A stretch of DNA of 64,000 nucleotides from a virus (IMGVR_UViG_3300013121_000027:96001-160000), one strand, 5' to 3'; shown: positions 21,077 through 57,890, counted from the first letter of the stretch. The notes: a model not told the origin generated them from the sequence alone. Translations and numbers: made by a program.

Positions 21077-21290
21077 TAGGAACTCGATTCAGATATCTAT
21101 CTATTGTGTTATCAAAGAATTCAGAAAGCGTCAGATTACTTTCTCTCGCCGCTCGCTTAATGACTTTAAATTCTTTCTTCTTTAATCTTAATCGACAAAC
21201 CTTATCGCCATTCGTCGTAATCACCTTGATCAGGATCGTATTCTGTTTCATTTTTCTGCGCTCTGGCTTTGTCATTCTGCTTCTTCTCAT
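21066..21290 (-). CDS. small basic DNA-binding protein (RHH-like)
   Basis: RLRLKKKEFKVIKRAARESNLTLSEF. Confidence 0.55.
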   Translation of the reverse strand: MRRSRMTKPERRKMKQNTILIKVITTNGDKVCRLRLKKKEFKVIKRAARESNLTLSEFFDNTIDRYLNRVPNAR

Positions 21291-21900
21291 TTCTTATTTT
21301 ACGTCTTAGCTCTCTCTTGTACGCATTTCTTTTTGCTTTGACCTCTTGATAGAGAGCGCTATTTGTGACTTTCTTTGTCTTAATTTCTTTTTGGTTAGTC
21401 TCCGAATTTTTTATTGCATTAAGAATTCGACTATAAACTATATCTTCTGCCAGATTATCATTATATCTGAAGACAACCAACGTGATTCCTTTTTCTTCAC
21501 ATAGTTGTAGCTTTCGCTCATCTCTCTCTTGAGAGCGAACAAAATCTTCATGGGTCTCATGGAAATGGACTATGTGTTTAAAGTGTTGAATGCCATGATA
21601 TTCGATTGCTAATTTATAACTTGGACAATAGATATCTATCTTCAATCTTTCCCCTATATGAAATTCGTTTACGATTTTTTCATTAGGAAGGATTTTCTGT
21701 AAGATTTTTGTTAGGGCAGTTTGCCCTCTTGACATCTTTCTCGGCTGTTGGAGAATCCAATCTAAGCCTAAAAGTTTAATTCTATGTATTAGAAACTTTT
21801 CGGATACCTTTATATCCTCAGCCATTTCTTTTAAAGAAAGTTTTGATTCAAGCAGTAATTCGATTATATGGTTATCGCAATCATCACGATCATCATACAT
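21202..21900 (-). CDS. HTH plus Vsr/DUF559-like endonuclease
   Basis: N-terminal HTH, then MSRGQ...IDIYCPSYKLAIEYHGIQH...RDERK..LC. Confidence 0.8.
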   Translation of the reverse strand: MYDDRDDCDNHIIELLLESKLSLKEMAEDIKVSEKFLIHRIKLLGLDWILQQPRKMSRGQTALTKILQKILPNEKIVNEFHIGERLKIDIYCPSYKLAIEYHGIQHFKHIVHFHETHEDFVRSQERDERKLQLCEEKGITLVVFRYNDNLAEDIVYSRILNAIKNSETNQKEIKTKKVTNSALYQEVKAKRNAYKRELRRKIRNEKKQNDKARAQKNETEYDPDQGDYDEWR

Positions 21901-22329: not shown

Positions 22330-23079
22330 TTATTTTCCATAATTCTCTTGTACATATTTTGGATAGGTCTCATCTATTTCTTGAAACTTTAACGGAAATC
22401 TATCAAATGGATCAACACCATTTTCTATTCTATACAGAATTTTCTCTTGTTCTTTAAATTCATCAAGATTATATTCTGAATGCGCAAATGATTCTATCTT
22501 AGTTTTTATTTTTTCGCAATCACTAAAAAAAGAAAAATGCCAGCCCGCATTAGGCACTCGGGGTACTTGCATAGCTCTAAGCTCTTGCGGGGTTGCGTTC
22601 ATATCATCTATAGTGACAAGTACTGGTCTTGCCCCTTGGTTGCAGTGTTGTGGGACTTTCCAATTAAAATTCCAAAAGAATTGATCTACATCCAGTTGAG
22701 TTCTAAGGCGTTTACCCGGACGACTAAAGAGCTTAATTTTTGAAGCTCTTGGTATTTCATCAACGTCACCTATTATAATGACATCTCTGCCATTAGCGCC
22801 ATGTAACCCTTGCATTATGGCATTGCGCTGAAAAGTTTCTCTCTCCCATGTAGTCATATTTCTGTGGGGAAATCCATCGAGACGCACCCGAATAATCTTA
22901 TCTTTCCATCTATCTATCCAGTTTGGGATATCGTCAAAGTAGAATGGTTTTTCTTTTCCAGTGAACGTTTCTGATGATTCTACTATTACAAAATAATCAG
23001 CTGCTGAATCCATCTCTTCGAGATGAATCCGCAATATTTCTTCTTCATTAAAATAAGTAAAGCAGTCGTAAATTTTCAT
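22330..23079 (-). CDS. glycosyltransferase family 17 (beta-1,4-GlcNAc transferase-like)
   Basis: IYDCFTYFNE..IL..L, FVIVES..TFTG.EKP, WERETFQRN, GDVDEIP, GWHFSF, KIESFAHSEYN. Confidence 0.9.
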   Translation of the reverse strand: MKIYDCFTYFNEEEILRIHLEEMDSAADYFVIVESSETFTGKEKPFYFDDIPNWIDRWKDKIIRVRLDGFPHRNMTTWERETFQRNAIMQGLHGANGRDVIIIGDVDEIPRASKIKLFSRPGKRLRTQLDVDQFFWNFNWKVPQHCNQGARPVLVTIDDMNATPQELRAMQVPRVPNAGWHFSFFSDCEKIKTKIESFAHSEYNLDEFKEQEKILYRIENGVDPFDRFPLKFQEIDETYPKYVQENYGK

Positions 23080-23570
23080 AATTCAATCTTTTGGTATACG
23101 AGAATATTTCTATCTCTTAGAAAGCTATATTGTTTCGTCTGTTTTTCTAAATCTAATCTTTGTTTAAAAATAGCGCTTAAATTTAACCCATCAAGATATG
23201 AATCTATTAAAAGAATTATCCCACCAGACTTCATTAACTCAATAATTTTTATGGTTTCTTCAAACGAATCATATCGTTCGCTAAATAATTTGGGATCATG
23301 TTCAAATGCTATGAATAATTTACAAAAATCATTTCCAAAAAAAGATTCAGTCATAGGATTCCAAAAATGTATAAACTCACTATTTATACTCAGAGCCTCA
23401 TCGCTATTTAAAACCCAAGTCTCAAGACTGTGTTTTGAATTTCGAGCAAATTCCAAGAATGGATAAGCTTTATTATAACATACGATAGAATCTTCGGGAT
23501 TAAAAACATCTCTTATTACGTGGGTAAAAAAATCCCAATTCATATGACCTCGTTTATTTTTTGCGACCAA
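23076..23570 (-). CDS. hypothetical protein, possibly a degenerate methyltransferase fold
   Basis: LMKSGGIILL resembles the post-II motif of class I methyltransferases. It lies in the glycosylation operon. Confidence 0.5.
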   Translation of the reverse strand: MVAKNKRGHMNWDFFTHVIRDVFNPEDSIVCYNKAYPFLEFARNSKHSLETWVLNSDEALSINSEFIHFWNPMTESFFGNDFCKLFIAFEHDPKLFSERYDSFEETIKIIELMKSGGIILLIDSYLDGLNLSAIFKQRLDLEKQTKQYSFLRDRNILVYQKIEL

Positions 23571-24210
23571 TCCACCATAATTGAATAGGACAACGTGGGT
23601 CGTGGTCAGCGTAGAACGGCTGTTTCATAGCTTCTTCCGGTGTATATGTACGCCCACCAAGAACAAGATCCTTATTGTTAGTATACTCCCAACCTACACG
23701 AGCTGCACTTCCCCATGTATCAAATAGTAAAGTTTGCCACATCTCATCGGGAAAAAGTACCTTATATCCATGCGGCATAATACGCCAACAATCCATAGGA
23801 CTTGGATGTACTGGATAAAGTCCGGGCGTTGCCACAATAGCTAATCCACCCGGTTTTAGCACTCTCAAAAAGGTTTCTGCAGCCAACCATGGTCTTTGTA
23901 CGTGCTCCAGAACTTGATCAGCAACAACAATATCTAAACTGTTAGATGGAACTGCATTAAGGTTTTCTGCGTCATATTGCGGATAAGTTCCAAGGATATG
24001 GTTAAGATTTTTACCTAACAAATCCTTAAACATCCAACGCATATAGGTTTGCCAACCCCCATCAGGATCACCAAACCACTCAGAGCCAAAATCTAAAACA
24101 TCATATTTACGATCTTGCCATGGATATTTGCTAAGTACCCCGTAAATCGATTCATACAAAAAATGTCTTAAATGATCTTCCTTACTCCATGTTTTAAATG
24201 TTTCTTCCAT
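23554..24210 (-). CDS. class I SAM-dependent methyltransferase
   Basis: VLDFGS, DIVVADQVLEHV..PW, RVLKPGG, P.HP.P.DCWR. Confidence 0.9.
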   Translation of the reverse strand: MEETFKTWSKEDHLRHFLYESIYGVLSKYPWQDRKYDVLDFGSEWFGDPDGGWQTYMRWMFKDLLGKNLNHILGTYPQYDAENLNAVPSNSLDIVVADQVLEHVQRPWLAAETFLRVLKPGGLAIVATPGLYPVHPSPMDCWRIMPHGYKVLFPDEMWQTLLFDTWGSAARVGWEYTNNKDLVLGGRTYTPEEAMKQPFYADHDPRCPIQLWWIGRKK

Positions 24211-24211
24211 T

Positions 24212-24985
24212 TTAAATCTTTCTTTTTGAACCTAAGAGCGGATATCTTGGTTGGGTCTGAATATATCTTGCAGTTTCCATTACTGTATCAGTGCCTAAAT
24301 GCGTGTGTTCGTTTAGTGGATTACACGCGTTATATAGATACAGGATTTCGTGTATATATCTCGCATGTTGGGGTCCAGCCATTTCTATCATCGGATACAT
24401 AAGAGCTAAATCTGGAGCCATTTGATAAAATTGTCCATCGCGTTTAAAATCTTCGACGTTAATATTATTAAAGAGCCACGTTTTATATGTTCTTAAATGC
24501 GAGAATATAAATGGATACGATCTATCGTGTCGATCATCTGGAGCCTTGCTTAAGAATCCTCGTGGATCAGCATGAGGATCTGGATTTCGCGATTCCATAT
24601 CATATGCGAATGAGCCATAGGTTATCCAAACGTCTGGATCTAAATAGGTATTATCTAATTTTTGTAATACAAGATTACCAGCTAATTCATCATCACCATC
24701 AAGATTAACTATAATTTCATCTTCATTACAAAGCTGAGCCATTTGATAGTGATTAGCTAAAACCCCTATCCTATTTCTATTTCTGCGAATAGATTTTATC
24801 TTATCCTTATTAGGATGATAATAGCATACATCATAAATAATATCCCAAGTTTTATCGCTTGATTGATCATCTACAATGATAACTTCATAATTGTCATAAA
24901 CTTGATTGAGTGCTGAGTTTATTGCTCTTGCTATATATTTTTCAGCATTAAACGTTGGAATGGTGATCACGAACTTATTAGACAT
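24212..24985 (-). CDS. glycosyltransferase family 2
   Basis: IPTFNAEKYI..AINSALNQ, IVDDQSSD, LDGDDEL, SHLRT. Confidence 0.92.
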   Translation of the reverse strand: MSNKFVITIPTFNAEKYIARAINSALNQVYDNYEVIIVDDQSSDKTWDIIYDVCYYHPNKDKIKSIRRNRNRIGVLANHYQMAQLCNEDEIIVNLDGDDELAGNLVLQKLDNTYLDPDVWITYGSFAYDMESRNPDPHADPRGFLSKAPDDRHDRSYPFIFSHLRTYKTWLFNNINVEDFKRDGQFYQMAPDLALMYPMIEMAGPQHARYIHEILYLYNACNPLNEHTHLGTDTVMETARYIQTQPRYPLLGSKRKI

Positions 24986-25652
24986 TTTTTTGCACCTTCT
25001 GTATAAGAAAGATCGCTAATCCGTTCCACCATTCGTCATAATCTCCTACTTTAAAAGCTGGGAGTTCCCATTGATGCAGGACATTTAATTTTTTATTTTG
25101 TAAAGCTTTTTTGGTGCCCTCTTGAACCTTATCCCAATTCCAATCATCTACAAGCAATAAAAATTCTTTAGTCATAACTCTTGTGCCAAGAGCAACTGCT
25201 TCATATTGGGATTCAATTTCATGATCACCATCATAAAAAAGAATATTAAAGCTATTAGCTTTAAGTGATTTTATTGCGTCTTTAAAGTCTAAATCTATAA
25301 GTTGAACTGTGCTGCCTAAAAATTTCTCACAGTTACTATTAAACTCAAGTTTTTCGACACTGCCGTCTTCGGATTCAAATGGGTGCCCAACGTTATCCCA
25401 ATGACCAGAAAAATTATCTATCGCACAAGACGGAATATTATTACCATAAAGTGCAGAAATATGCGTAGAGCCTTTCCATACTCCAACCTCTAAGAACTTT
25501 GCGTCTTGGTTAGAGCATAGATTATTTAGAAGATGCTTTATTTTTTGTGAAGACCAACCCTGGATATCTAAAACATCACTTGGTACTTTTGATTCTAATC
25601 GATTTGATTTTTCAATACAGTCATTAATATATTCAATGGTTAATAAATTCAT
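24978..25652 (-). CDS. class I SAM methyltransferase (Methyltransf_24-like)
   Basis: FLEVGVWKGST, IDNFS, FYDGDH, VDDWNW, WWNG. Confidence 0.88.
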   Translation of the reverse strand: MNLLTIEYINDCIEKSNRLESKVPSDVLDIQGWSSQKIKHLLNNLCSNQDAKFLEVGVWKGSTHISALYGNNIPSCAIDNFSGHWDNVGHPFESEDGSVEKLEFNSNCEKFLGSTVQLIDLDFKDAIKSLKANSFNILFYDGDHEIESQYEAVALGTRVMTKEFLLLVDDWNWDKVQEGTKKALQNKKLNVLHQWELPAFKVGDYDEWWNGLAIFLIQKVQKNV

Positions 25653-25658
25653 TTTTCC

Positions 25659-26690
25659 TCAGTAAGGTTTCATTAAATTGGTTTTCCAATTATATCCATT
25701 ATACCATTCACCAGTTAGATTAAACCATTTATTGATGGCTATATCGCGATCTCTCATATAGGCATTGGGATTATGTTGATGTTCCCAATGCATGTAGTCG
25801 TTTCTTAATGTCCTATGAATAAGGTACCTATTGCCTTTAATGGTTAGGATTTGTTTTCCGGAAAAGGCATCAAGCTGATCCCAATAGGATGTTGCGTCTG
25901 TGCCAATTAAATCTGGTGCTGGATTAATATTAACGCCCTCTTGTAAAGCCCAACGACGCATAAATTCCTCATCGGGTGGCCAATGCTGCATTAGGGAAAC
26001 TGGATCAGTTCCGTATGTCCATCCTTTACCTTTGAAATAAGAAGCCCACTTGTCTCTAAACTGAACGCATCCTAAATGTTCACGAGCTTTAGAAATATCA
26101 CTTCTTGGACCACCTGGATCGTTATGGAAAATACTAATGCCTGGCACTCCAGCCACTCTTAAATCAGACATACGTACGCGTAAAGCCATGTCGCATTCGT
26201 TTTGATGCATAAGCTGAGGGTCATATCCGCCAATTTCATCAAATAGACTTTTACGAATCGCCCAACACATACCTAATCCCCATTTGAGCTCGTCATAATC
26301 CTCATGGTGGATGGCTTCATTATACGAACCCGGCATTGCCATGCCTATTTCTGGACGCATTATATAATTGCGAAGGATTTGGTTCCATCCTGGAGTTTGA
26401 ATAATGCAGTCATCATCTAAATGGATCAGGCAATCACCAACGCCCGCAGCTAACCCCTGGTTTGTTCCGATAGAAAGCCCCTGGTTTGTTTCGTTACGAA
26501 TAACTTGATACTTCTCACTTAATGCAGTCAAATAATTAATCGCTTCTGGATCGGTACTTCCGTTATCTACAATGATAATCTCATATGGTGGTGCGCAAAA
26601 TTGTTCTAAAGCAGTAATGGTTTGGCGTAGAGTATTAACTCTATTCATTGCTAAAACACAAATACTCGTTCCTGTCATTAATAAATCCAT
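25659..26690 (-). CDS. glycosyltransferase family 2
   Basis: EIIIVDNGSTD, NQGLS.G.NQG, HLDDDC, IGGYD. Confidence 0.9.
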   Translation of the reverse strand: MDLLMTGTSICVLAMNRVNTLRQTITALEQFCAPPYEIIIVDNGSTDPEAINYLTALSEKYQVIRNETNQGLSIGTNQGLAAGVGDCLIHLDDDCIIQTPGWNQILRNYIMRPEIGMAMPGSYNEAIHHEDYDELKWGLGMCWAIRKSLFDEIGGYDPQLMHQNECDMALRVRMSDLRVAGVPGISIFHNDPGGPRSDISKAREHLGCVQFRDKWASYFKGKGWTYGTDPVSLMQHWPPDEEFMRRWALQEGVNINPAPDLIGTDATSYWDQLDAFSGKQILTIKGNRYLIHRTLRNDYMHWEHQHNPNAYMRDRDIAINKWFNLTGEWYNGYNWKTNLMKPY

Positions 26691-27622
26691 TCTACTAAAT
26701 CAGCTTTTAATTGTTCCTTATCCATACGCTTAGCTATAAATGAATTGTACTCCGTATAGTGTGCATTGGTTTCTGTTAAGGGCGGACTTGACGGGTTGTA
26801 AATAAAATAACCACGATCTAAATATGTACGAGACATCTCATCTGCGGTGAGTAATCCTTCGTGATGCTTTTCCCCAGGGCGCTCCCCAACAATTTCAATT
26901 TCCGAGTATCCACGCATCACTTCGGCTAATTCCCCAAGAGTGACTGATTCCATTTCTTGTGACACGATTAGACCCGGACCCACACCAGTTAAACAGTATT
27001 CGATAAGGGCGACTGCATCTTCTAACGTAAAAAAGAATCGTGTCATATCAGGATTAGTTATCGGGAGTGTGGCTCCAGCCTCTCTACGCTCTTTCCAAAA
27101 CGGAAGAACTGATCCACGAGTACCTATAACATTACCATATCTGGCTACGTTAAAAATGGTTGTTCCTTTTTTGCCTTGGCGATTACAAGCCTCTAAGAAT
27201 AATTTTTCTAATAGCGCCTTAGTATAGCCATAAGTGTTAACTGGCATGCACGCCTTATCGGTCGAAATACCGACACAGCGTTCAACAGTTTTCTCGTCTA
27301 ATACTGCGTTGACCAAATTAAGCGTTCCCATCACATTTGTAGAGACATATTCTGATGGTTGCAGTTCACTAATATTTACATATTTTAATGACGCGCCATG
27401 TATAACAATATCTATATCTCTAACGGCATCGCGAACCGCCGCATAATCTCTTATATCGCCTAATTTATAGGTATATTCGGGAAATAGTTTCTTCATGTCG
27501 TATTGCTTTTTTTCATCACGACTGAAGATAACAACGTCAGAACCTAATGTTTGAAATCGAGCTGCTAATGCATGACCGAGACTACCAGTCCCACCGGTAA
27601 TTAAAACTTTTTTATACTTCAC
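26678..27622 (-). CDS. NDP-sugar (UDP-GlcNAc) 4,6-dehydratase, PseB/CapE/FnlA-like
   Basis: LITGGTGSLG, FSRDEKKQ, STDKA, YGYTK, RYGNV.GTRGSV, ITNPDMTRF, RPGEK.HE. Confidence 0.93.
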   Translation of the reverse strand: MKYKKVLITGGTGSLGHALAARFQTLGSDVVIFSRDEKKQYDMKKLFPEYTYKLGDIRDYAAVRDAVRDIDIVIHGASLKYVNISELQPSEYVSTNVMGTLNLVNAVLDEKTVERCVGISTDKACMPVNTYGYTKALLEKLFLEACNRQGKKGTTIFNVARYGNVIGTRGSVLPFWKERREAGATLPITNPDMTRFFFTLEDAVALIEYCLTGVGPGLIVSQEMESVTLGELAEVMRGYSEIEIVGERPGEKHHEGLLTADEMSRTYLDRGYFIYNPSSPPLTETNAHYTEYNSFIAKRMDKEQLKADLVEWIY

Positions 27623-28324
27623 TTAATCCTCCCAGGGAAATTGTCTAAGAACTGGATCTGTATCCATGATTGAAATAATGTGCGCATTCGAATGAAATGC
27701 CCCACCATCTATATTCATATATCTGTCGTACTTGGCTTTCTTATCCGCATCTTTGATATAGGAGAGATGCTTCATAACTAACCCACTGTTTTGTAGGTAT
27801 TGACCGTTTCTTACCATAGCCTGAACGTAAGTCGGTTCGGATCCGCAAGCTAACTGTCTCTCTAAGAACTTTCCGCCAGGAAGATATCTAAAGAATCTTG
27901 TGCTTCCATGTGGACGCCATGCCTTATCAACTCTAAATTCTTCTTCATTCCACATGTGATAGAAGTCTATATTGATTACAGGGTAATTATCCTGATTAAC
28001 TAAATCTCTAAGTTCAAATTTAGTCTCGTATAACATCTCATCACAGTCTATAGCCAAAATAAATGCTTCCTGTGTAGGAAGAACACTTTCTAAATTCACC
28101 CATGATTGTTGGCGAATTTTTCCCTCATCGGTGCTGAAGGTTGGCTTGTCCATTTGGAAAACTTTTGCGCCAAACGACTCAGCGATATTGGGGGTATCGT
28201 CATCTGAGCAGTCGTCAGTAAAGATGATCATGTCAACTTGAGACTTAAGCCTATTTAGGACCGGCTTTAAATAGCTGTCGGCTTCGTTTCTGCCGATCAT
28301 ATTTGCGATAATTTGTCTTTTCAT
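27623..28324 (-). CDS. glycosyltransferase family 2-like
   Basis: GRNEAD, TDDCSDD and IDCDE (DxD). The start is moved to MKRQII, downstream of the terminator. Confidence 0.8.
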   Translation of the reverse strand: MKRQIIANMIGRNEADSYLKPVLNRLKSQVDMIIFTDDCSDDDTPNIAESFGAKVFQMDKPTFSTDEGKIRQQSWVNLESVLPTQEAFILAIDCDEMLYETKFELRDLVNQDNYPVINIDFYHMWNEEEFRVDKAWRPHGSTRFFRYLPGGKFLERQLACGSEPTYVQAMVRNGQYLQNSGLVMKHLSYIKDADKKAKYDRYMNIDGGAFHSNAHIISIMDTDPVLRQFPWED

Positions 28325-28339
28325 TTTATCTCCAAAAGA

Positions 28340-28376
28340 AAGAGAAAAGGGGACCCCCACCGAAGTAGGAGTCCCC
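28340..28376 (-). terminator. intrinsic terminator
   Basis: On the - strand: GGGGACTCCTAC-TTCG-GTGGGGGTCCCC followed by TTTTCTCTTT. Confidence 0.85.
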
Positions 28377-28392
28377 GATTCTTAGCCCTTAC

Positions 28393-28584
28393 TCAGACCA
28401 TCTCACCAACGAAGTAGTGAGCATCAGCAGATGAAATATTTTGAACGGTCGAAGACTCAGCAAGTACCTTAGCCTCGGGAAGTGGCTTACGTACGCTTGC
28501 AGCCGTCAACGCATTGGTCTTGTTGTTCGCACGAACAATCTTAGTAATGGTGACCTCAAAATACTTATTCTTATTTGAACTCAA
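28393..28584 (-). CDS. small basic protein in its own transcription unit
   Basis: 63 aa, flanked by a consensus promoter and a terminator. Confidence 0.7.
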   Translation of the reverse strand: MSSNKNKYFEVTITKIVRANNKTNALTAASVRKPLPEAKVLAESSTVQNISSADAHYFVGEMV

Positions 28585-28642
28585 TTTTCTATTCCTTTGT
28601 GTTTAGTAGGTATTTCTTACCTTGCATTAAGCATTCTATCTT

Positions 28643-28671
28643 GTTGTATTAGATTTTGCAACATCTATTTT
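28643..28671 (-). promoter_or_regulatory. sigma70-type promoter
   Basis: TTGCAA-17 bp-TAGAAT on the - strand. Confidence 0.7.
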
Positions 28672-28683
28672 ATTACAATTTGA

Positions 28684-29277
28684 TTACGCTACTGGAAACT
28701 TTTCCTCAACGTAATTTAATAGTCCTGTCCATCCATAGACGCGTGGGGCATCCGTTAAATGCCAGTTCCATGGTTGGTCGAATACTACCATATTATTCTC
28801 ACCGGACTTTTTATTCTTTTCGAATTGATATGGGGCATCATCAAAAAGTACATCGAACCCATACCCAAACTTATCATCACTCAATATCAAATCATTGTAC
28901 GGAAGACCAGCGACATTATTTACCCAATAATAAGTAGCTTCGTAAGCCAGCTTAGGTTGGGCTGGTGTAAATCGCGAAGTGATAAGAACTATGTGATCTT
29001 GTCGTATATGATACAAGTAATCTACGGCTTCTTTACAGCCATCATACATCTGACCTCGCCAAAACAGGTCACTATCTTTTACACCTGCTGCTACAATTTG
29101 TTTATACTCGGCAAGGGAATATCCCCAATCCTCATAAAATTCCCAACGAGTTGCTGGAGGCATCTCGTCAAGGGCGCGTCCTGTAGATTCATAAATATAG
29201 AATCTTAGGGCGTCTACAAACTTGTAACAAACGCCGTCCAAGTCCAAGCCCACGCGCGCCATTATGCTACCCCCCAT
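28684..29277 (-). CDS. 5'(3')-deoxyribonucleotidase (HAD/NT5C family)
   Basis: GLDLDGV, ITSR, LFDDAP, FDQPWN. Confidence 0.88.
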   Translation of the reverse strand: MGGSIMARVGLDLDGVCYKFVDALRFYIYESTGRALDEMPPATRWEFYEDWGYSLAEYKQIVAAGVKDSDLFWRGQMYDGCKEAVDYLYHIRQDHIVLITSRFTPAQPKLAYEATYYWVNNVAGLPYNDLILSDDKFGYGFDVLFDDAPYQFEKNKKSGENNMVVFDQPWNWHLTDAPRVYGWTGLLNYVEEKFPVA

Positions 29278-29732
29278 CTATTTTTCATAGCTGTTTTTGC
29301 AGCTGTGCTTCTACAGGTAGAGCAGAAGAGTCTATTCCCACGACCATGCTTAAGTGGATGTCCATATATGCATTGTGGATTTTTAAGAAATTCTAAATAC
29401 TGTTTAAGCATTAATATAAAACTTTCTTTTTTAGGTTCACTTAAAAACTCCCAAAACGCAGCGCAGATAAACTGTACGTTTTGAAAACTTTCAACTTTAT
29501 AGGTAAAATACGGACTGCTATTGGCTGTTTTAGGCTTATATGGTCCACCGATACTGCCCACATTAAAAACGGATTGGAATTTGTCTAATGGTTCTCTTCT
29601 GACTTGGGCTATTTGTAAAATTAATCTTGGACTTCTTCTTTTATTTTTATTTGAATAATATATATTACCTTCGCCATCAAAAAACCCAGCAGCCCAAGCT
29701 AATTCCTCCCTATCAAGTCCTATTTTAGCCAT
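29262..29732 (-). mobile_element. free-standing LAGLIDADG homing endonuclease with a C-terminal Zn finger
   Basis: ELAWAAGFFDGEGNI motif and C-terminal CIYGH...CSTC. Confidence 0.85.
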
Positions 29733-29977
29733 TAGACATTCTCTCCAAGTTTCTTTCTTATATCCACTGCAAGCTGCGGATATTTATCTTCAATGATATT
29801 AGCATAATAAAGCATCGCCAACCAAGCATATGGATCATTGACCCAATCCATGACATAGTATCGAGCATTTTCTTTGTCCCTACCGGGAGTGTCTCTTCCG
29901 TCTACTCTGGAAACTAAATATTTCTCATAGACTGGACCATCTTTAGCCATAATTTTTAACCTTTCTTGAACTTTCAA
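29732..29977 (-). CDS. hypothetical phage protein
   Basis: YEKYLVSRVDGRD...YYVMD...DPYA. Confidence 0.65.
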   Translation of the reverse strand: MKVQERLKIMAKDGPVYEKYLVSRVDGRDTPGRDKENARYYVMDWVNDPYAWLAMLYYANIIEDKYPQLAVDIRKKLGENV

Positions 29978-30548
29978 GATCTTTAGTATATAGGCAGACC
30001 TTAATTCCTTTTAGTCTTGGAGAAAGAGGATCTCTTAACATTGGCTTAATTAATTTCCAGGTTGTTAAATGATGAATAATTGCATTTGGGGAATCCCAAG
30101 TTGGAACGAACACTAAAGCCAATAGGTCATTGTCGTAATCATTTGACGATAGGAGTTTGTCTGTTCCGAAAAATCCATTTCCATTCCCCATTTGAAAAGT
30201 CCAAGATTCTGTCTTTGCATAATCTAAGGTCTTTTGACTACAGGTTTTAACATGTACATCGGGAAAGTCTAAACCCAATGTTTTATACGGGAGGTCCGCA
30301 TCCCAATTCTTTTTCTTGCTTGAGTAAATTTGAACATCAGGAGCAACTTCTTTTCCAAAAGTTTCTTTAATATACTTGGCAACAATAAACTCACCCTTCT
30401 TGCCAGTCATACTATCGTCTTTTGGCTTTGAGGCATTTCGCTGTTTCGCCCAAAACTTATGGCTTGCTTCCATGCCATCTCCATAAGTCTCAATAATGTC
30501 ATTCATCTTCTTATTTTCTTTGGGTGTTAATTTAACTTCTACGAGCAA
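29943..30548 (-). CDS. putative restriction-endonuclease-fold protein
   Basis: GKKGEFIVAKY...PD...DADL...VHVKT. It is adjacent to a DNA methylase. Confidence 0.55.
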   Translation of the reverse strand: MLVEVKLTPKENKKMNDIIETYGDGMEASHKFWAKQRNASKPKDDSMTGKKGEFIVAKYIKETFGKEVAPDVQIYSSKKKNWDADLPYKTLGLDFPDVHVKTCSQKTLDYAKTESWTFQMGNGNGFFGTDKLLSSNDYDNDLLALVFVPTWDSPNAIIHHLTTWKLIKPMLRDPLSPRLKGIKVCLYTKDLESSRKVKNYG

Positions 30549-30560
30549 AATATGCCCCTT

Positions 30561-31394
30561 TCATTGTTTTGGCGAAATGAATAATTCGCTCTTAGCTCTG
30601 GCTGTTGTTATAGTGTAGTTCACGGGCACTTCTTCTATATTAGCCCAATCATACATCTCTTTAATCTCTGAACAACTATCATACGACAAAAGCCAATGAG
30701 AATCAACCTTTTTTAAAGAATTTGCTAATCTAGCATGATCATCTTTTGAGAATGAAAATTGATATAAATCAGAACCCTTATCGAAGTAAGGTGGATCTAC
30801 ATAGATAAAAGTATTTTGTGTAGCGTTTGTATCAATTACTTTTTCAAAATCAGTAGCAAATAAATAAGTATTGTATGGCGCAAGTAACGCATGATCTTTG
30901 TATATTTTTTTCGCCATGGAGTCTGGAGACCATCTACAACCTATATCGTATTTCGAATTCTGTTTGGCACCACCAATTGGTCCACCAGCTTTAACTCCCA
31001 ATCCGGAATATGACATCTGGTGCAAGGCAATCTTTTTAAAAGCTATAGAATCAAACGATTCATTTGTATAACTACAACTTTCAAGTTCTTTCTTAAACGT
31101 GTAGAAAGCTTCAGTGGATGGAACAAAATCTTTTATTCTATCGACAAGTAGTTTAGGTTCATGGTAAACAGTTCTCCAAATGCAATGAATTGCAAAGTCG
31201 GTATCATTTGCTACAACAGTTTGAAGATCTGGAAAAACATTCTCTTTAAGCGCAGCAAAACAAATACTTCCACCGCCAAAGAATGGTTCCATATATCTAT
31301 GAATTAATTTATCTTTTGTGATTTCTTTAATTTTTTGGATGATGGGCTTGCTAAGTTTAGCCTTACCGCCTGGATATCTAAAGAACGACATCAA
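30561..31394 (-). CDS. DNA adenine methyltransferase (Dam/D12 family)
   Basis: FRYPGGK, YMEPFFGGGS, YVDPPY, WLLSYD. Confidence 0.93.
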   Translation of the reverse strand: MMSFFRYPGGKAKLSKPIIQKIKEITKDKLIHRYMEPFFGGGSICFAALKENVFPDLQTVVANDTDFAIHCIWRTVYHEPKLLVDRIKDFVPSTEAFYTFKKELESCSYTNESFDSIAFKKIALHQMSYSGLGVKAGGPIGGAKQNSKYDIGCRWSPDSMAKKIYKDHALLAPYNTYLFATDFEKVIDTNATQNTFIYVDPPYFDKGSDLYQFSFSKDDHARLANSLKKVDSHWLLSYDSCSEIKEMYDWANIEEVPVNYTITTARAKSELFISPKQ

Positions 31395-32206
31395 TTACAC
31401 TCGTGAGGAATTCCCAACGCTTCGCACGTTTGGATATACATTTGTCTACTTGTTTGAAATAAATTTTGTAACTTTTCATTGTGAGATCCTGTTGACGCAT
31501 TCCACGTATGTCCAGCCGTATCAACCGTTCCATCGTACCATACTTCGTACCCTAAATGTTGTACTAATTGAGAATAAAAAGTCTCTTCAAAATACATTGG
31601 AGTAGGGAGCCATGCACCTCTCAAGTTTGGATACAGCGTCTTAAATGGCTCATATTCGGCTACCTCATCCCAAACATTTCTACGCATATAATATATAGAA
31701 CCAGAGACAGTCCAACAGGGTACTCTATCCTTGTAAGATGCATCAAATGGATCCTTCATCGACCAACCCCTATGGATTGGATTCTTAACTCCATCCCAAA
31801 AGATTCCGCCATGTCGAATTAATTTATTTTCATCCATCTGCTTAACACCAATAACCGCAGCGTTGGGTGTCTTATGAAAGGACTCTATTACTTGTTTTAC
31901 ATGGCTTGTTGTAAACCATGTATCAGCATTGACAGCACAGAGGAATTCGCTATTGGATCCAGCTTTAGATAAGGCTACCAAATTATTGATAGCGGCTGAA
32001 TAACCTATATTTTCATTAAAGCCAAAATATTTCAAATTATACTTGTGAAAATTTTCCGTTAACCATTCTCTTGTACCGTCAGTAGATGCGTTGTCTGAAA
32101 TGTAAATATTCCAAACGCCTGGTTCATAATCGCTATGTAGCGTATCAAGAAGTCTCTCCAGTAATTTCTTCGTGTTGTAGTTCACGATCAAAAGATCCAC
32201 TGCCAT
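31391..32206 (-). CDS. glycosyltransferase family 2
   Basis: IVNYNT, DNASTDG, NIGYSAAIN, NADT, VSGS, MYFEET. Confidence 0.9.
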   Translation of the reverse strand: MAVDLLIVNYNTKKLLERLLDTLHSDYEPGVWNIYISDNASTDGTREWLTENFHKYNLKYFGFNENIGYSAAINNLVALSKAGSNSEFLCAVNADTWFTTSHVKQVIESFHKTPNAAVIGVKQMDENKLIRHGGIFWDGVKNPIHRGWSMKDPFDASYKDRVPCWTVSGSIYYMRRNVWDEVAEYEPFKTLYPNLRGAWLPTPMYFEETFYSQLVQHLGYEVWYDGTVDTAGHTWNASTGSHNEKLQNLFQTSRQMYIQTCEALGIPHECN

Positions 32207-53366: not shown

Positions 53367-56300
53367 TTAAAATTCCTTATAATCAGGATATTGTGGCGTA
53401 GCAGCTATAGAATCGTAAGTCGTTCCCAATATACCCATTTGGTACTGGGTATACTTGTCTATCGCATACCAGGAGGGTGGAGTCCAAATAATAACATCCT
53501 CATTTAACCCTGGTTCTAAAACCAGTTCATCATATGTTGTTGGGAAAGCGGGAGTCGCAGTATATTCTGGAAGATTCCAATAAGGAGTAGATGACTGTTC
53601 GGTACCAAGTGGTAGTCCAGAAATAAGATCTATACTATTAGTAACATCCGGATACTCATACCAATACACTAAATCACCAATTGTGGTAAAAGTTCCAGAT
53701 GGTGAAGCCGATTCGGATTCTGTTGATACAAACCAATATCCCGGAGTATCAGATGGATTAAATGGTCCAATTGAGAATCTACCATTTTGATCCGCTACAA
53801 CTCGTCCGTGTATACCGTCTAATCCTGGAGTCGCAGAAGAAGTATCCCAATCTATATTAAAAACTTCATATATAGTTCTTCCTTTACGCCAATATACATA
53901 AGCATTACTAACAGCATCGTGACCACTTGTGGTTACTTTGCCGTAAACGAAATTAGCATTTTCTGGATCGGCTAAAATATAATCTGAATCTGGTATCGCA
54001 TAAATACTATATGTTTCCGTCGGTATGACTTCAATATCAAATTTCGCAGTAGTAGAAAAATCCCCTTCAACCAGAATAATTCCCTGATCTAAAGTTCCAG
54101 GAGTAGCAGGTGCCAATGCTGGAGTAGAGGGGTAAGCCGGTGTGGCTGGGGTCCAAATATTTGATTGAAGTGTAAATGCGGTAAACCCATTATTATCCGT
54201 TATAACCACATCGTCTGACAAAGATCCAAAGTTAGTAAAAACATTTAGAGATTGGTAGGGTTTTGGATTGCCATTTATATCTGTTGTTTTGACAGTGACT
54301 ATGGCATAATCAATTCCATCGGACACTATTTTTGTTGGACTTATAGAGATATCAATTCTGTCAAGATCATAAATATCGTGATCTATATAGATAAATCCAT
54401 CATCTATAAATGTCTCGTTTGGATTAAGCTCAATATCGGCTGGTGTAGCTGGATCATAAATGGAAACCTCATATTCTATCCTATAGTAATCTGCCCCAAT
54501 TTCTCCAGGTGGTCTATCAAAAAAGACTTTTGTTTTATTTAAACCATCACTATCTACAAAATCATTATCTATATAGTATGAATAATTAGGAATATAATTG
54601 ACGTCATATTCATGAATTGAAATTGTTGGCGTTGCCAACTGTATCTCGTTGGATAATGTATAATTGGCAATCAATCCAAGAGATGAATTCGTGGTCGTAT
54701 CTACGATTGTTATATCTCTTATATCTTGGTATGAAGCTTTAAGCGCAGCCGTGTCATTCCCTGTTATTCTTTCTGTATTATCAATAGATAAAAGTGGTGT
54801 AGCGCTGTCGTAATTAAAGAATGAGGTTTGTCTAAGTTCAGCTATTGGCGTAGCACCATCTATAGCTTTAATTATAATAGGAGCACCTTGTCTGTTAAGA
54901 TCTGAAAGAACTTTATAAGATCCGGTAGCTTGTTCTGTATTTGGACTCGCATATAAATAATACTCATCCGTATCATCGTAAAACCATCCAGAATGGAGCT
55001 TTGGATTCCATTTCTGATTTATATTTGGTCTTAATCTACAAAAAATACGTAAAGTACTTAAATTATAAGTCAGTGTATCTGGATCATAGATCTCTATATT
55101 GACTGTGGATGGATACTGAACGGACAAATCAGTTTCTCCATAGTCCACAACGGCAGGTTTTATTGTGTTGGTTTCAAGCCAAACTATAACATTTGGTTCA
55201 TCAACGCTCTCAACACCAATCCATGTTAAGATATAATCTTCGGTTTCTGGAATATTGAAATCTGCTCTTGTTAATTCAAGATTGTCTAATAGATAGTCGC
55301 TACTATTAAAGTCTTGAGTTTTTCCATTTCTCCATGGTCCACTGGCATCTACGGTTCCACTTATTGGAGTTACGATAGAGCTTTCAAAGATCTCCCATAC
55401 ACCAATGTTAACTGGATAAGCTGCGCCTGACGTAGTAGAAAAGGTTAAGGATGTTGTTCCCGCGCTAAATGTCTTGTAATAATCGTCTGTCCAGGTAGTA
55501 TTTCCGTCTACAGCTATATATGTATTGGGTATAAAAATAGGAGTTGAAGCCACAGCATCAGAATATGCCCCAAACGTAGTAAGATTATAATTTGTTATAA
55601 AATCTACTTTGATAAGCCTTGAGCTTGTTGATGCTGGCCAGACAAAATTTGGAAGAGTTAGAACATAATCCTGAGCAGTCATGTCAGGCATTACGCCATT
55701 TAATGTTATATTATACGTATATTTTTCCGTTTGCCATGTATCAGGCGTTGCACCTAAATAATTTGTACTATGGCTTTCAAACCAAAATGCACCAAAGTGG
55801 TTCCACCAGGTATATGGACTCTTGGTTAATGAAGTTCCACCATCAAGCCCCATAATTGTACCTGGTTCGCCATCAAACCATGCCTTATAATCACTCTGTG
55901 TTGGAGCATTCATATAAGCTGGCGTTGCCGCATCTCCATTAAAGTGTCCTGGATAAATATTAACAGCTGATACTAACGGAAGTGGAATTTGAGACCCATA
56001 ACTAACACCGGTTGATTTATTTTTAAAATCAAATCCGATATCTGTATATCCATCTGGAGTGGTCCATTCTATTAGGGCACGAGAGGCTGGCGATGGTGTT
56101 GGCGTATAGTAATCCACATCACTTTTGGCGGTGGCGGTAACATTACAGTAGAAGGTATGTTGAGTTGGTGAAGCTCCATCTTCATAAACTGATAACTCGA
56201 TTGTAAAATATCCCTGCAAAACAGGATTATCCCAAACGGCATTTGCAGCCGTACCATAAATCTGGACAGCAAACGATAGCGGAATATGTTCTGATCGTAA

Positions 56301-57890
56301 AGTCTTTTTACGTCCCTTTATCTTTAAAGTTGTATTAAAATCATACTTATTTTGCACTTCGCGCGGTCTAAATACATAAAGATCATTACCATCACCAACG
56401 CCAGATTCAAGATACTCTTGTGACACTGGCGTAGCATCTAATTGCCTTGGTAGTGTGTCAAATCCCTTATGTCCATTAAAACCATCAGCATCCCAGAAGG
56501 CATTTCCGTATTTGAAAAATCCCCAAGTCATAGGATATTTAATTGCCAATTCTTGAACCAGATCTTTAAATTTTTGAGTTGGGATACCATCAACAAAGAA
56601 GTCTTCATCATTTTCTATATCGGATATTTCTATGACTTCAGGAGTAGCCCCAAGGAAAGCGGAATCCGGAGTCGCGTTTGAATATCTCCAAAGGTTCAAT
56701 TCTCGTCTTAAAGTTTTCTTAAATAATTCTTTACTAACGCCCGGGTTATTTATATAAACATCTAAAATCCTCTTCCTAAAAGAATCATTATCTTCTAGAT
56801 ACCCATTAGGGGTTGCACTTTGAATCCTAAAGAGATCAACAGAGACACCAAGATCATCAAGCCCATTCCAAATATGATATGGCTTTTGATATACTTTAGT
56901 TCCGTTTATTAAAAGTTCGTCATATAAAATATTAGTAAATATTTCATCTGTAGCCCTAGACCAATAACATGCATTGTCGTCATCTTGTGATGCGTAAAAT
57001 TCCTCAACGCTTGAGGTCTTAGCTAACGATATACCATCACCAGTTATAGACCAAACAATATCTGGTACGCCCTGTGTAATATAAATCCAAGCTTTTTGAT
57101 CTAAATCAACTGTATCGATATAATATTGATATTCCTGATACTTTATTTTTTGAGTAAGATCAGTAAGCCACTCTCCAGCAATAGCATTTAAAAACTCTCC
57201 ACCTACTGAGATTGGTGTTGCTTTATCTTCTTTAAGGGGATCGTCTGGATCATGCTCACGAAGTGCCATCCATTGTGGAAATTTATCTTGTATTTTTTTT
57301 GTTGATGCGAAATATCCATTTGTTACAGGTGGATCTATCTCTACAGCAATAATCATCTCTATAGATTTGCCGTCTACAAGGATAGTCGAATCTAAATCAA
57401 AAATAAGTTCAAAGAACGCATACCTGGACGATTCAATATTGAAAACATTTCTTCCCAAGATGATATTTTCTTGAACGGACCAATCACTTACCATTGATGG
57501 GGTGGCATGAAGATAATAAGGAGTGGAATCAGAAAAGTCGGAGGTGTAAACCGAGAGTTTACTTCCAACAGCCGACGAGATTGAGGCATCGAATGATACC
57601 TTCCAGTCCATAATATCGATTCTGGCTGACGTATCTACGAACCTTCCAGAATCTACAAAACCAATTTCCGATTCAGTTGCAGATAACTGATTTAATCCAG
57701 TATAAACGCCATTATTTAAAAGGTTAGTCCCAAAACCAATCCTTTTAACTGTATAGTTTTTGTATTGTGAATTAAAGTATAGATCGAAAACGTCCGTACG
57801 CCAAGTATACCTCGTATTGGTATCGTCTAAGATATCGGATGTCTTACTGACGAAATCATTTTCAGTAAAACGCAGATGATAAAGTTTCAT
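53367..57890 (-). CDS. large baseplate/tail protein with an Ig-like region and 17 Ala-Thr-Pro motifs
   Basis: 1507 aa, directly downstream of baseplate J. EDNDSFRKRILDV is wedge-like and IVSDGIDYAIVTVKTTDINGNP is Big_1-like. Confidence 0.8.
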   Translation of the reverse strand: MKLYHLRFTENDFVSKTSDILDDTNTRYTWRTDVFDLYFNSQYKNYTVKRIGFGTNLLNNGVYTGLNQLSATESEIGFVDSGRFVDTSARIDIMDWKVSFDASISSAVGSKLSVYTSDFSDSTPYYLHATPSMVSDWSVQENIILGRNVFNIESSRYAFFELIFDLDSTILVDGKSIEMIIAVEIDPPVTNGYFASTKKIQDKFPQWMALREHDPDDPLKEDKATPISVGGEFLNAIAGEWLTDLTQKIKYQEYQYYIDTVDLDQKAWIYITQGVPDIVWSITGDGISLAKTSSVEEFYASQDDDNACYWSRATDEIFTNILYDELLINGTKVYQKPYHIWNGLDDLGVSVDLFRIQSATPNGYLEDNDSFRKRILDVYINNPGVSKELFKKTLRRELNLWRYSNATPDSAFLGATPEVIEISDIENDEDFFVDGIPTQKFKDLVQELAIKYPMTWGFFKYGNAFWDADGFNGHKGFDTLPRQLDATPVSQEYLESGVGDGNDLYVFRPREVQNKYDFNTTLKIKGRKKTLRSEHIPLSFAVQIYGTAANAVWDNPVLQGYFTIELSVYEDGASPTQHTFYCNVTATAKSDVDYYTPTPSPASRALIEWTTPDGYTDIGFDFKNKSTGVSYGSQIPLPLVSAVNIYPGHFNGDAATPAYMNAPTQSDYKAWFDGEPGTIMGLDGGTSLTKSPYTWWNHFGAFWFESHSTNYLGATPDTWQTEKYTYNITLNGVMPDMTAQDYVLTLPNFVWPASTSSRLIKVDFITNYNLTTFGAYSDAVASTPIFIPNTYIAVDGNTTWTDDYYKTFSAGTTSLTFSTTSGAAYPVNIGVWEIFESSIVTPISGTVDASGPWRNGKTQDFNSSDYLLDNLELTRADFNIPETEDYILTWIGVESVDEPNVIVWLETNTIKPAVVDYGETDLSVQYPSTVNIEIYDPDTLTYNLSTLRIFCRLRPNINQKWNPKLHSGWFYDDTDEYYLYASPNTEQATGSYKVLSDLNRQGAPIIIKAIDGATPIAELRQTSFFNYDSATPLLSIDNTERITGNDTAALKASYQDIRDITIVDTTTNSSLGLIANYTLSNEIQLATPTISIHEYDVNYIPNYSYYIDNDFVDSDGLNKTKVFFDRPPGEIGADYYRIEYEVSIYDPATPADIELNPNETFIDDGFIYIDHDIYDLDRIDISISPTKIVSDGIDYAIVTVKTTDINGNPKPYQSLNVFTNFGSLSDDVVITDNNGFTAFTLQSNIWTPATPAYPSTPALAPATPGTLDQGIILVEGDFSTTAKFDIEVIPTETYSIYAIPDSDYILADPENANFVYGKVTTSGHDAVSNAYVYWRKGRTIYEVFNIDWDTSSATPGLDGIHGRVVADQNGRFSIGPFNPSDTPGYWFVSTESESASPSGTFTTIGDLVYWYEYPDVTNSIDLISGLPLGTEQSSTPYWNLPEYTATPAFPTTYDELVLEPGLNEDVIIWTPPSWYAIDKYTQYQMGILGTTYDSIAATPQYPDYKEF

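Follow-up and report, generated by a model that had tools for sequence, protein, structure and literature searches.

A composite glycosyltransferase island in a jumbo phage genome and its possible part in O-glycosylation of tail proteins

The window analysed here, a stretch of 64,000 nucleotides (IMGVR_UViG_3300013121_000027:96001-160000), comprises bases 96001-160000 of a virus record that is complete at 231,459 bp and bounded by direct terminal repeats (DTR), and between its positions 22,330 and 32,206 it carries genes for building a glycan. We find that this island is a composite, in which two glycosyltransferase (GT) genes belonging to the core of a phage family, GT2c and GT2d, are accompanied by an accessory cassette made up of GT17, orf155, MT11, GT2a, MT24, GT2b and a sugar dehydratase gene. 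As an earlier note on this DNA had proposed, the products form a soluble, phage-encoded pathway; we find in it five GTs, a candidate TylF-like O-methyltransferase and an intact uridine diphosphate-N-acetylhexosamine (UDP-HexNAc) 4,6-dehydratase. The gene content of the island and the cytoplasmic, self-contained character of the pathway are solid, which cannot be said of its acceptor; O-glycosylation of virion tail proteins is the function that we favour from sequence, and we give it about an even chance. The virus is a contractile-tailed jumbo phage (GC content ~37%) that encodes a DnaE-type polymerase, primase, DnaB helicase, ThyX, a class II-like ribonucleotide reductase (RNR), a baseplate wedge protein and very large virion proteins.

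Results

The island encodes nine soluble proteins

The nine genes that the earlier note had named, with their positions, common orientation and families, were all found to be intact, co-oriented minus-strand open reading frames (ORFs) with profile matches, and those between 22330 and 28324 abut or overlap. They are as follows.

22330..23079, minus strand: GT17-like GT-A glycosyltransferase, 249 amino acids (PF04724, E 6e-28); accessory cassette
23076..23543, minus strand: orf155, methyltransferase-fold partner of GT17, 155 amino acids, start at M10; no sequence family
23554..24210, minus strand: MT11, class I S-adenosylmethionine (SAM)-dependent methyltransferase (Methyltransf_11, E 1.8e-9)
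24212..24985, minus strand: GT2a glycosyltransferase (PF00535, E 2e-24)
24978..25652, minus strand: MT24, TylF/MycF-like candidate sugar O-methyltransferase (Methyltransf_24, E 2.4e-7)
25659..26690, minus strand: GT2b glycosyltransferase with a C-terminal extension of ~110 amino acids (PF00535, E 6e-19)
26678..27622, minus strand: short soluble UDP-HexNAc 4,6-dehydratase of the PseB/CapE/FnlA type (Polysacc_synt_2, PF02719, E 1.5e-71)
27623..28324, minus strand: GT2c, family-core glycosyltransferase, true start at M13 (PF00535, 25.1 bits)
31391..32206, minus strand: GT2d, family-core glycosyltransferase (PF00535, E 7e-15)

Two start sites were revised, that of orf155 from 23570 to M10, giving 23076-23543 (57 clusters), and that of GT2c from 28360 to M13 at 28324. 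With a 19-residue hydropathy window of at least 1.6 as the criterion for a transmembrane (TM) segment, no such window was present in any island protein, in agreement with the previous remark that no TM segment was evident.

A family-wide core pair is joined by a mobile cassette

Throughout, labels of the form L### and G### refer to loci and genomes of relatives, and G000:C1 to the whole genome that holds the window. Profiles of GT2c and of a 1507-residue virion protein described below each retrieved 80 loci from one large uncultured phage family with contigs of up to 268 kb. Both GT2c and GT2d were single-copy in all 15 long contigs of this family (47-56% and 41-48% identity, respectively; 48-57% for GT2c over the 80 viral loci), and GT17 was found in seven of the 15, and in four of the ten that are at least 90% complete. 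It can be seen from the 35 loci with full flanks that the order ThyX-GT2d-GT2c-HNH-helicase-primase is the usual one (32 loci, in one of which a small ORF separates GT2d from GT2c), and that the HNH gene adjoins GT2c in 34; in the window HNH marks the junction of the cassette insertion. A GT17 cassette between GT2c and HNH, in the manner of the window, was seen in 2/35. The complete genomes G025, G029 and G032 have the two core GT2 genes only.

In G003-G005, which are relatives at 45% (DnaE) and 52% (helicase), the core pair occupies its usual place and the cassette lies ~12 kb beyond DnaE, where an RmlD-like short-chain dehydrogenase/reductase (SDR), a methyltransferase, a GT2b-like protein, MT11, orf155 and GT17 are encoded with collagen-like tail fibres and poly-Thr ORFs as neighbours. 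In L117 the cassette is at the position seen in the window, but with an RmlD-like SDR. The PseB-type dehydratase is common to L005 and L006, MT24 is in neither, and GT2a is confined to the window and L005. The window holds the richest GT17-containing version among the loci compared. Constraint was judged by intact full-length orthologs and conserved motifs, as 50-65% amino-acid identity means saturated synonymous sites, and L115 and L117 (NCBI/Logan) were examined in their flanks. Since both the position and the contents of the cassette differ among relatives, we conclude that it travels as one block, whose sugar-supply and tailoring genes vary. In G026, a family member with a complete genome of 268 kb and no GT17, a different cluster of four extra GT2-type genes (G026:C1:55237-58330) looks like an alternative accessory glycosylation cassette.

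The view of 22330-32206 as one island did not hold, as GT2c and GT2d are parted by NT5C, a LAGLIDADG endonuclease, two unknown ORFs and a Dam methylase. The neighbouring features are listed here.

21202-21900, minus strand: HNH homing endonuclease
28349..28376, minus strand: 12-bp GC-rich hairpin with a T-run directly upstream of GT2c, the strongest terminator-like site in 20.5-33.5 kb
29262-29732, minus strand: LAGLIDADG homing endonuclease
30561-31394, minus strand: D12-class N6-adenine DNA methyltransferase (Dam; E 4e-26), directly downstream of GT2d

LAGLIDADG falls within the extra block, with NT5C and Dam, that separates the core pair, and Dam is the sole DNA-modification enzyme noticed near the island. 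The hairpin and T-run (28376-28349) sit ~15 nt upstream of the true GT2c start and could be a terminator isolating the GT operon from the genes upstream, or a structured element for the phage's own unusual RNA polymerases. Promoter scans of the region were uninformative, with 33 sigma-70 sites found against 46 expected and 64 Bacteroidota -7 motifs against 73.

The transferases keep GT-A features and resemble envelope enzymes

GT17 scored 98.3 bits against a cut-off of 26 bits over PF04724 profile positions 74-305 of 348, and D105-x-D107 together with ~55 further positions was invariant across 23 homologs of 53-62% identity. The Foldseek neighbours of its AlphaFold2 (AF2) model (predicted local distance difference test, pLDDT, 85.4) were all GT-A enzymes, and ~1950 short homologs were retrieved, many of them on contigs of 100-240 kb. 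Distant homologs occur in 3-4 copies on two contigs of 90-100 kb (G008 and G009, the contigs of L056 and L096; CheckV completeness ~26%), which look like pieces of much larger genomes and so of very large viruses with expanded GT17 families, possibly not phages. The eukaryotic GT17 enzyme MGAT3/GnT-III, the bisecting GlcNAc transferase, has a type II membrane anchor and transfers beta-1,4-GlcNAc to the core mannose of N-glycans. The phage protein shares with it membership of PF04724, the GT-A fold and the DxD motif, but consists of the ~250-residue catalytic core, is paired with a methyltransferase-fold subunit and is without the anchor (maximum 19-residue hydropathy 0.74); an N-glycan acceptor is not expected in bacteria.

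Among the GT2 proteins, GT2a conserves DGDD with L005, and the DDD metal motif of GT2b is kept in its orthologs, which are 57-66% identical in L005 and L006 and ~30% identical in the G003-G005 cassettes. GT2c barely passes PF00535 (25.1 against 23.3 bits), its orthologs conserve the GT-A motifs TDD...DxDE, and a pattern scan found no bacterial relative of it. GT2d has a conserved DNxS and a conserved N-A-D where DxD is expected. On the point of catalytic DxD residues, raised in the earlier note, the metal motifs are therefore kept in GT17, GT2a, GT2b and GT2c, and GT2d is the one that departs. A PDB sequence search with GT17, GT2c and MT24 returned nothing significant, the GmaR matches (E 0.01-0.5) not being evidence.

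The best NCBIfam and PDB matches of the GT2 proteins are to exopolysaccharide, teichoic/teichuronic acid and O-antigen enzymes, those in NCBIfam all falling below cut-off; GT2a matches K4CP chondroitin synthase, TarS and TarP in the PDB, the TarS/TarP matches being weak and extending to GT2d, and weak PHROG matches are labelled 'GtrB-like O-antigen conversion'. These resemblances favour an explanation that we consider unlikely, namely host envelope remodelling, in which soluble GTs would act at the inner membrane face on undecaprenyl-linked O-antigen, capsule or O-glycan precursors that host flippases then export; the surface of the infected Bacteroidota cell would thereby be altered, so as to block superinfection or to keep progeny from adsorbing to debris. 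The GT2 enzymes that ordinarily make O-antigen and capsule are likewise soluble and have no TM segments. Moreover, host-envelope remodelling is the interpretation that has been given to GT genes neighbouring tail-fibre genes in aquatic myophages (PMC7029224).

Set against this, genes for an initiating phosphoglycosyl transferase, a flippase, a polymerase, a ligase and GtrA are all missing from the phage. Neither GtrA (PF04138) nor a phosphoglycosyl transferase (Bac_transf) was found in the complete genome, and there is no polytopic membrane protein, no ORF in the genome having more than four TM-like segments, which upholds the claim that flippase and GtrA are missing. Gtr serotype-converting cassettes likewise encode phage glycosyltransferases that are presumed to act in the conflict between phage and host, but the GtrA flippase, membrane GtrB and polytopic GtrC that define them are absent here, and the island GTs are soluble. 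The argument that absence of TM segments speaks against serotype conversion is accordingly borne out as regards the Gtr machinery and does not extend to lipid-linked host glycans, on which soluble GT2 enzymes also act. It would also be unusual for a moron-like serotype gene to be, as GT2c is, a strict family core gene for which bacterial relatives were not detected. Nothing in the window points to lysogeny, and a lytic jumbo phage has only a short time in which to benefit.

orf155 is a predicted partner of GT17

The ORF that had been called methyltransferase-like does have that fold in its AF2 model (pLDDT 91.6), which is of the class I type, with Foldseek matches such as MnmM (8h27, E 3.5e-5, TM-score ~0.5-0.6), though it lacks the Gly-rich SAM loop: the GxGxG motif I is absent from orf155, and CYNKA, CLNEA or CFGSP stands in its place. 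The family comprises 57 clusters, accompanies only those GT17 proteins that share 51% identity or more with the one in the window, and lies immediately upstream of GT17 and co-oriented with it in 15/15 occurrences. The predicted GT17-orf155 complex scored 0.70 in the interaction prediction score from aligned errors (ipSAE), compared with 0.00 for the best of three controls (both alignments used), a mark that was reached by 58 of 80 solved complexes and by two of 110 mismatched pairs; the runs agreed in 100% of contacts, with partner pLDDT of at least 90. The predicted interface falls on invariant residues of both proteins (P143/H145/C146, G221 and F228-K231 of GT17; H8 and D12 of orf155). From these models we conclude that GT17 and orf155 probably bind each other, as a heterodimer with a degenerate methyltransferase-fold subunit.

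Sugar supply and tailoring

MT11 has a 76% identical ortholog in L005, and a shorter type is present in the cassettes of L006, L115, L117 and L043; in L115 a TauD-type oxygenase heads the cassette. MT24 matches Methyltransf_24 with 32 bits (cut-off 26.3), TylF with 15.8 bits (E 0.009, below the cut-off of 23) and phrog_1458 at E 7e-34, and its top PDB profile matches, at a non-significant E of 0.2, are the MycF sugar O-methyltransferases. ExGxxxG and D141...D169-D170 are invariant, the spacing of the latter presumably resembling the metal-binding Asp triad of TylF/MycF/NovP. Just five near-length homologs were found for MT24, and no fused forms.

The dehydratase matches the PseB model TIGR03589 at E 1.6e-79, with 267 bits lying below the equivalog cut-off of 407.75, and aligns end to end with CapE (7e-59), FlaA1 (9e-57) and 4tqg (9e-40), FnlA-type enzymes included. 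Its GGTGSLG, DKA and YGyTK (YGxTK...K) motifs align with FlaA1 (2gn4), CapE having Met at that Tyr. It is 39-40% identical over the full length to the PseB/FlaA1, CapE and FnlA dehydratases, has the same Rossmann motif, D-K pair and Tyr...Lys as FlaA1, and its predicted product is a 4-keto-6-deoxy-HexNAc. Unlike in the PseB and CapE systems, the partner genes PseC/H/G/I/F and CapF/G were not found in the phage genome.

The complete genome holds these four GT2 genes and one SDR and no more, and DegT aminotransferase, a second SDR, GT1 and sugar nucleotidyltransferase are all missing from it. With no aminotransferase, second SDR or nucleotidyltransferase, finishing of the 4-keto sugar must rely on host enzymes. 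Of the 6-deoxy amino sugar that had been proposed, the phage accounts for the 4-keto-6-deoxy-HexNAc step and no further. Such dependence on host sugar enzymes is a further point that accords with envelope remodelling.

No known route leads to glycosylated DNA

Glycosylated-DNA pathways obtain the acceptor hydroxyl from a ThyA-family hydroxymethylase or 5-hydroxylase, or from a C5-methyltransferase with TET/JBP (10.1101/2023.12.21.572611; PMC13326640). In the complete genome the ThyA family (PF00303), TET/JBP (PF12851) and the C5 cytosine methylase (PF00145) are absent at E<=0.1, and hence no known enzyme route to the acceptor hydroxyl is available. DNA as the acceptor, the other possibility raised beforehand, is weakened for this reason. 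The same holds in comparison with the clusters of DNA glycosyltransferases (T4 alpha/beta-GT; MT-5mYOX-GT; RB69/DLP3 arabinosyl-5hoC), which are alike in encoding phage GTs with a presumed conflict role but have the ThyA homolog, TET/JBP or C5-methyltransferase that is lacking here.

More broadly, the GTs, and especially GT2c and GT2d near ThyX, NT5C, Dam and RNR, might glycosylate phage DNA, a nucleotide or RNA as a protection against restriction. It is position that speaks for this, the core pair having a conserved place in the nucleotide-metabolism and replication module in 32/35 loci, and it is otherwise the sole favouring point beside the weak TarS/TarP matches of GT2a and GT2d, GT-A enzymes resembling TarP being known DNA glycosyltransferases (10.1101/2023.12.21.572611). 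We nevertheless regard nucleic-acid modification as very unlikely, since the hydroxyl-making enzymes are absent, ThyX implies ordinary dTMP synthesis, and sugar O-methylation and five transferases exceed the DNA glycans described in 10.1101/2023.12.21.572611 and PMC13326640.

A conserved Ala-Thr-Pro motif marks two candidate acceptors

Two proteins stand out as candidate acceptors, the first of which the earlier note had pointed to.

53367..57890, minus strand: 1507-amino-acid virion protein with 17 Ala-Thr-Pro (ATP) motifs, candidate acceptor; adjoins the baseplate wedge gene
L128:4773-9629 = G000:C1:202772-207628, minus strand: 1618-amino-acid tail-fibre protein with 11 ATP motifs; PHROG matches to long tail fibre/central fibre

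ATP is the top-ranked over-represented tripeptide in both (17 against 0.5 expected and 11 against 0.8, respectively), and the two proteins have no internal repeats and are not homologous to each other. The 69 full-length orthologs of the 1507-residue protein, at 27-44% identity, contain 7-20 ATP motifs (median 14, 0.32 expected), and many of the sites are positionally conserved as [A/S][T/S]P; the background is about nil in ~720 large ORFs from unrelated phage loci. We take it from these sequences that the motif is real and under selection. ATP enrichment was not seen in ~1.7 Mb of flanks of the more distant GT17 loci.

A tie between the ATP motif and GT17 was considered and rejected, because six genomes that are at least 90% complete and lack GT17 keep 8-17 ATP motifs (the ortholog being partial in one genome). 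An independent contrast for GT2c likewise failed, there being no bacterial relative and all 80 viral matches coming from the same family. Of the supposition that the ATP-rich protein is the acceptor, therefore, the motif itself and its conservation in the family stand, and a link to the GT17 cassette does not; co-occurrence of GT2c and GT2d with ATP-rich proteins is invariable and, as a family-universal feature, uninformative, and for GT17 it breaks down.

An acceptor of another kind has also to be weighed: a host protein, a small molecule, a glycolipid or a non-virion phage protein, with the ATP motif being structural or otherwise modified (for example by proline-directed phosphorylation) and unrelated to the island. 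The independence of the motif from the accessory cassette fits such an acceptor, as does the lack of any transferase with acceptor-specific similarity. We nonetheless think it distinctly improbable, as nothing speaks positively for an acceptor of this kind, and the adjacency of cassette and fibre genes in relatives and the precedents in other viruses favour virion proteins.

As to that adjacency, eight of ten loci of the closest GT17 subgroup have collagen-like (GPT/GPS) fibre genes or poly-Thr ORFs within 10 kb, compared with 0/100 other loci. In one relative the stretch from the GT17 cassette to a collagen-like fibre encodes two PF13640 prolyl-4-hydroxylase-type 2-oxoglutarate oxygenases (L049:11330-12914, plus strand), which suggests collagen-style hydroxylation in that phage. 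Outside the window, G000:C1:186850-189837 (minus strand) encodes a 995-amino-acid protein with 36% Ser+Thr and ~25 degenerate repeats of ~33 residues (..VNHPVT.SG.STSSG..), a mucin-like fibre candidate that from its sequence is another possible glycan acceptor.

The phage has no near relative among described genomes

Among 50,697 phage records megablast with the 9.9-kb region gave no match, and tblastn with the polymerase and the dehydratase gave distant matches only, so that no near relative was found among these genomes. A 193-kb record that bears a homolog is labelled Flavobacterium sp.; this is compatible with a Bacteroidota host, which is probable and not proven by it. Moraphages have a PolB replicative polymerase and, in complete genomes, an Hc1 histone-like protein (PMC12619734). 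Membership of that lineage was rejected because the polymerase here is DnaE-like, not PolB, and Hc1 (PF07432) is absent. The same study shows that, in another lineage of aquatic jumbo phages, the core genes can include several GT orthogroups (PMC12619734).

Discussion

We favour O-glycosylation of tail proteins because precedents, the variability and mobility of the cassette and a Thr-Pro motif under selection all fit it. We infer the identity of the sugar, the order of the steps and the acceptor, whereas gene content, intact motifs, solubility, the division into core and accessory genes, the mobility of the cassette and the conservation of the motif are observed. A first layer is formed by GT2c and GT2d, as phage-specific core genes of a family of aquatic jumbo myophages with DnaE-type polymerases, and a second by the mobile cassette, inserted here between GT2c and HNH, in which GT2a, the TylF-like O-methyltransferase and the dehydratase are rare within the family. 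The dehydratase would convert a host UDP-sugar to 4-keto-6-deoxy-HexNAc and host enzymes would complete the sugar; the five transferases would then assemble an oligosaccharide that the methyltransferases cap. Before assembly, while still in the cytoplasm, exposed tail proteins would receive the glycan on Thr/Ser, with the [A/S]-T-P motif of the two tail proteins as the leading candidate attachment site, and the accessory cassette would diversify a glycan begun by the core pair.

Several observations weigh against this scheme. There is no direct tie between any of these transferases and any acceptor, and the enzymes that the GTs resemble in structure are of a generic kind (TarS, TarP, K4CP, SpsA, ColGalT1 and ppGalNAc-T). 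Soluble GT2 enzymes also act on lipid-linked host glycans, the 4-keto sugar pathway is incomplete, and the phage alone can neither finish the sugar nor export a glycan. Both in this phage and in the layout typical of the family, the genes belong to the module for replication and nucleotide metabolism and not to the virion genes. The ATP motif is as strong in complete genomes without GT17 (G025, G026, G032 and others), and as GT2c, GT2d and the motif are all family-universal, their association is not separable from shared ancestry. Finally, a family-wide tie of the GT17 cassette to poly-Thr or collagen-like proteins was rejected (6/11 genomes with GT17 and 6/8 without it have them), and the fibre adjacency may simply reflect a shared hypervariable region.

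Virus-encoded soluble enzymes are known to glycosylate the virions of mycobacteriophages, the capsids of chloroviruses and the fibrils of mimivirus. To our knowledge, experimental proof of virion glycosylation by phage enzymes is confined to a few mycobacteriophages. Their virion glycans shield the particles from antibodies. In the mycobacteriophages Che8, Corndog and Myrna, capsid and tail-tube subunits carry the glycans on extensions at their C termini (Freeman et al. 2023, as relayed in PMC12619734).

The pathway proposed here is like theirs in having soluble phage GTs, with methyltransferases in some phages, and in being cytoplasmic and directed to O-glycosylation of the phage's own structural proteins. 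In the mycobacteriophages, however, the glycans have been demonstrated, whereas in the present phage they are predicted from genes and the candidate sites are [A/S]TP motifs dispersed in tail and baseplate proteins; further differences are the GT17-like protein, which has a partner of methyltransferase fold, and the location of the genes in the replication module. The giant-virus clusters (the fibril cluster of Mimivirus with R141, which we take PDB 4tqg to be, and that of chlorovirus PBCV-1 with A064R) also combine a UDP-GlcNAc 4,6-dehydratase, several GT-A transferases and sugar methyltransferases, produce methylated 6-deoxy-sugar glycans on virion proteins and vary in gene content between clades. 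Their hosts are eukaryotic, however, and they encode a follow-on reductase or aminotransferase, whereas the phage encodes the first step only; the homology is limited to generic families.

A more specific proposal, unlikely in our estimation, is that GT2c and GT2d of the whole aquatic jumbo-phage family (more than 80 contigs) recognise an [A/S]-Thr-Pro sequon present 7-20 times in exposed tail proteins, with swappable cassettes diversifying the glycan from phage to phage, the cassette in this phage supplying the GT17/pseudo-methyltransferase heterodimer, O-methyltransferases and a gene for 6-deoxy-HexNAc supply. If true, it would be the first case of sequon-directed glycosylation to be described for a bacteriophage, and the candidate sequon would offer dozens of conserved sites. 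The GT17/methyltransferase-fold heterodimer is a predicted pairing of unfamiliar type. What the island reveals of the family is a two-layer split, with a universal GT pair across a large group of jumbo phages that are uncultured and probably infect Bacteroidota, and a mobile, variable cassette added to it. This architecture of core and variable cassette resembles that of O-antigen loci and of giant-virus glycan clusters, and points to diversifying selection on a surface glycan, which, if it is carried on the tail fibres, would bear on host recognition, on particle stability and on the engineering of phage surfaces.

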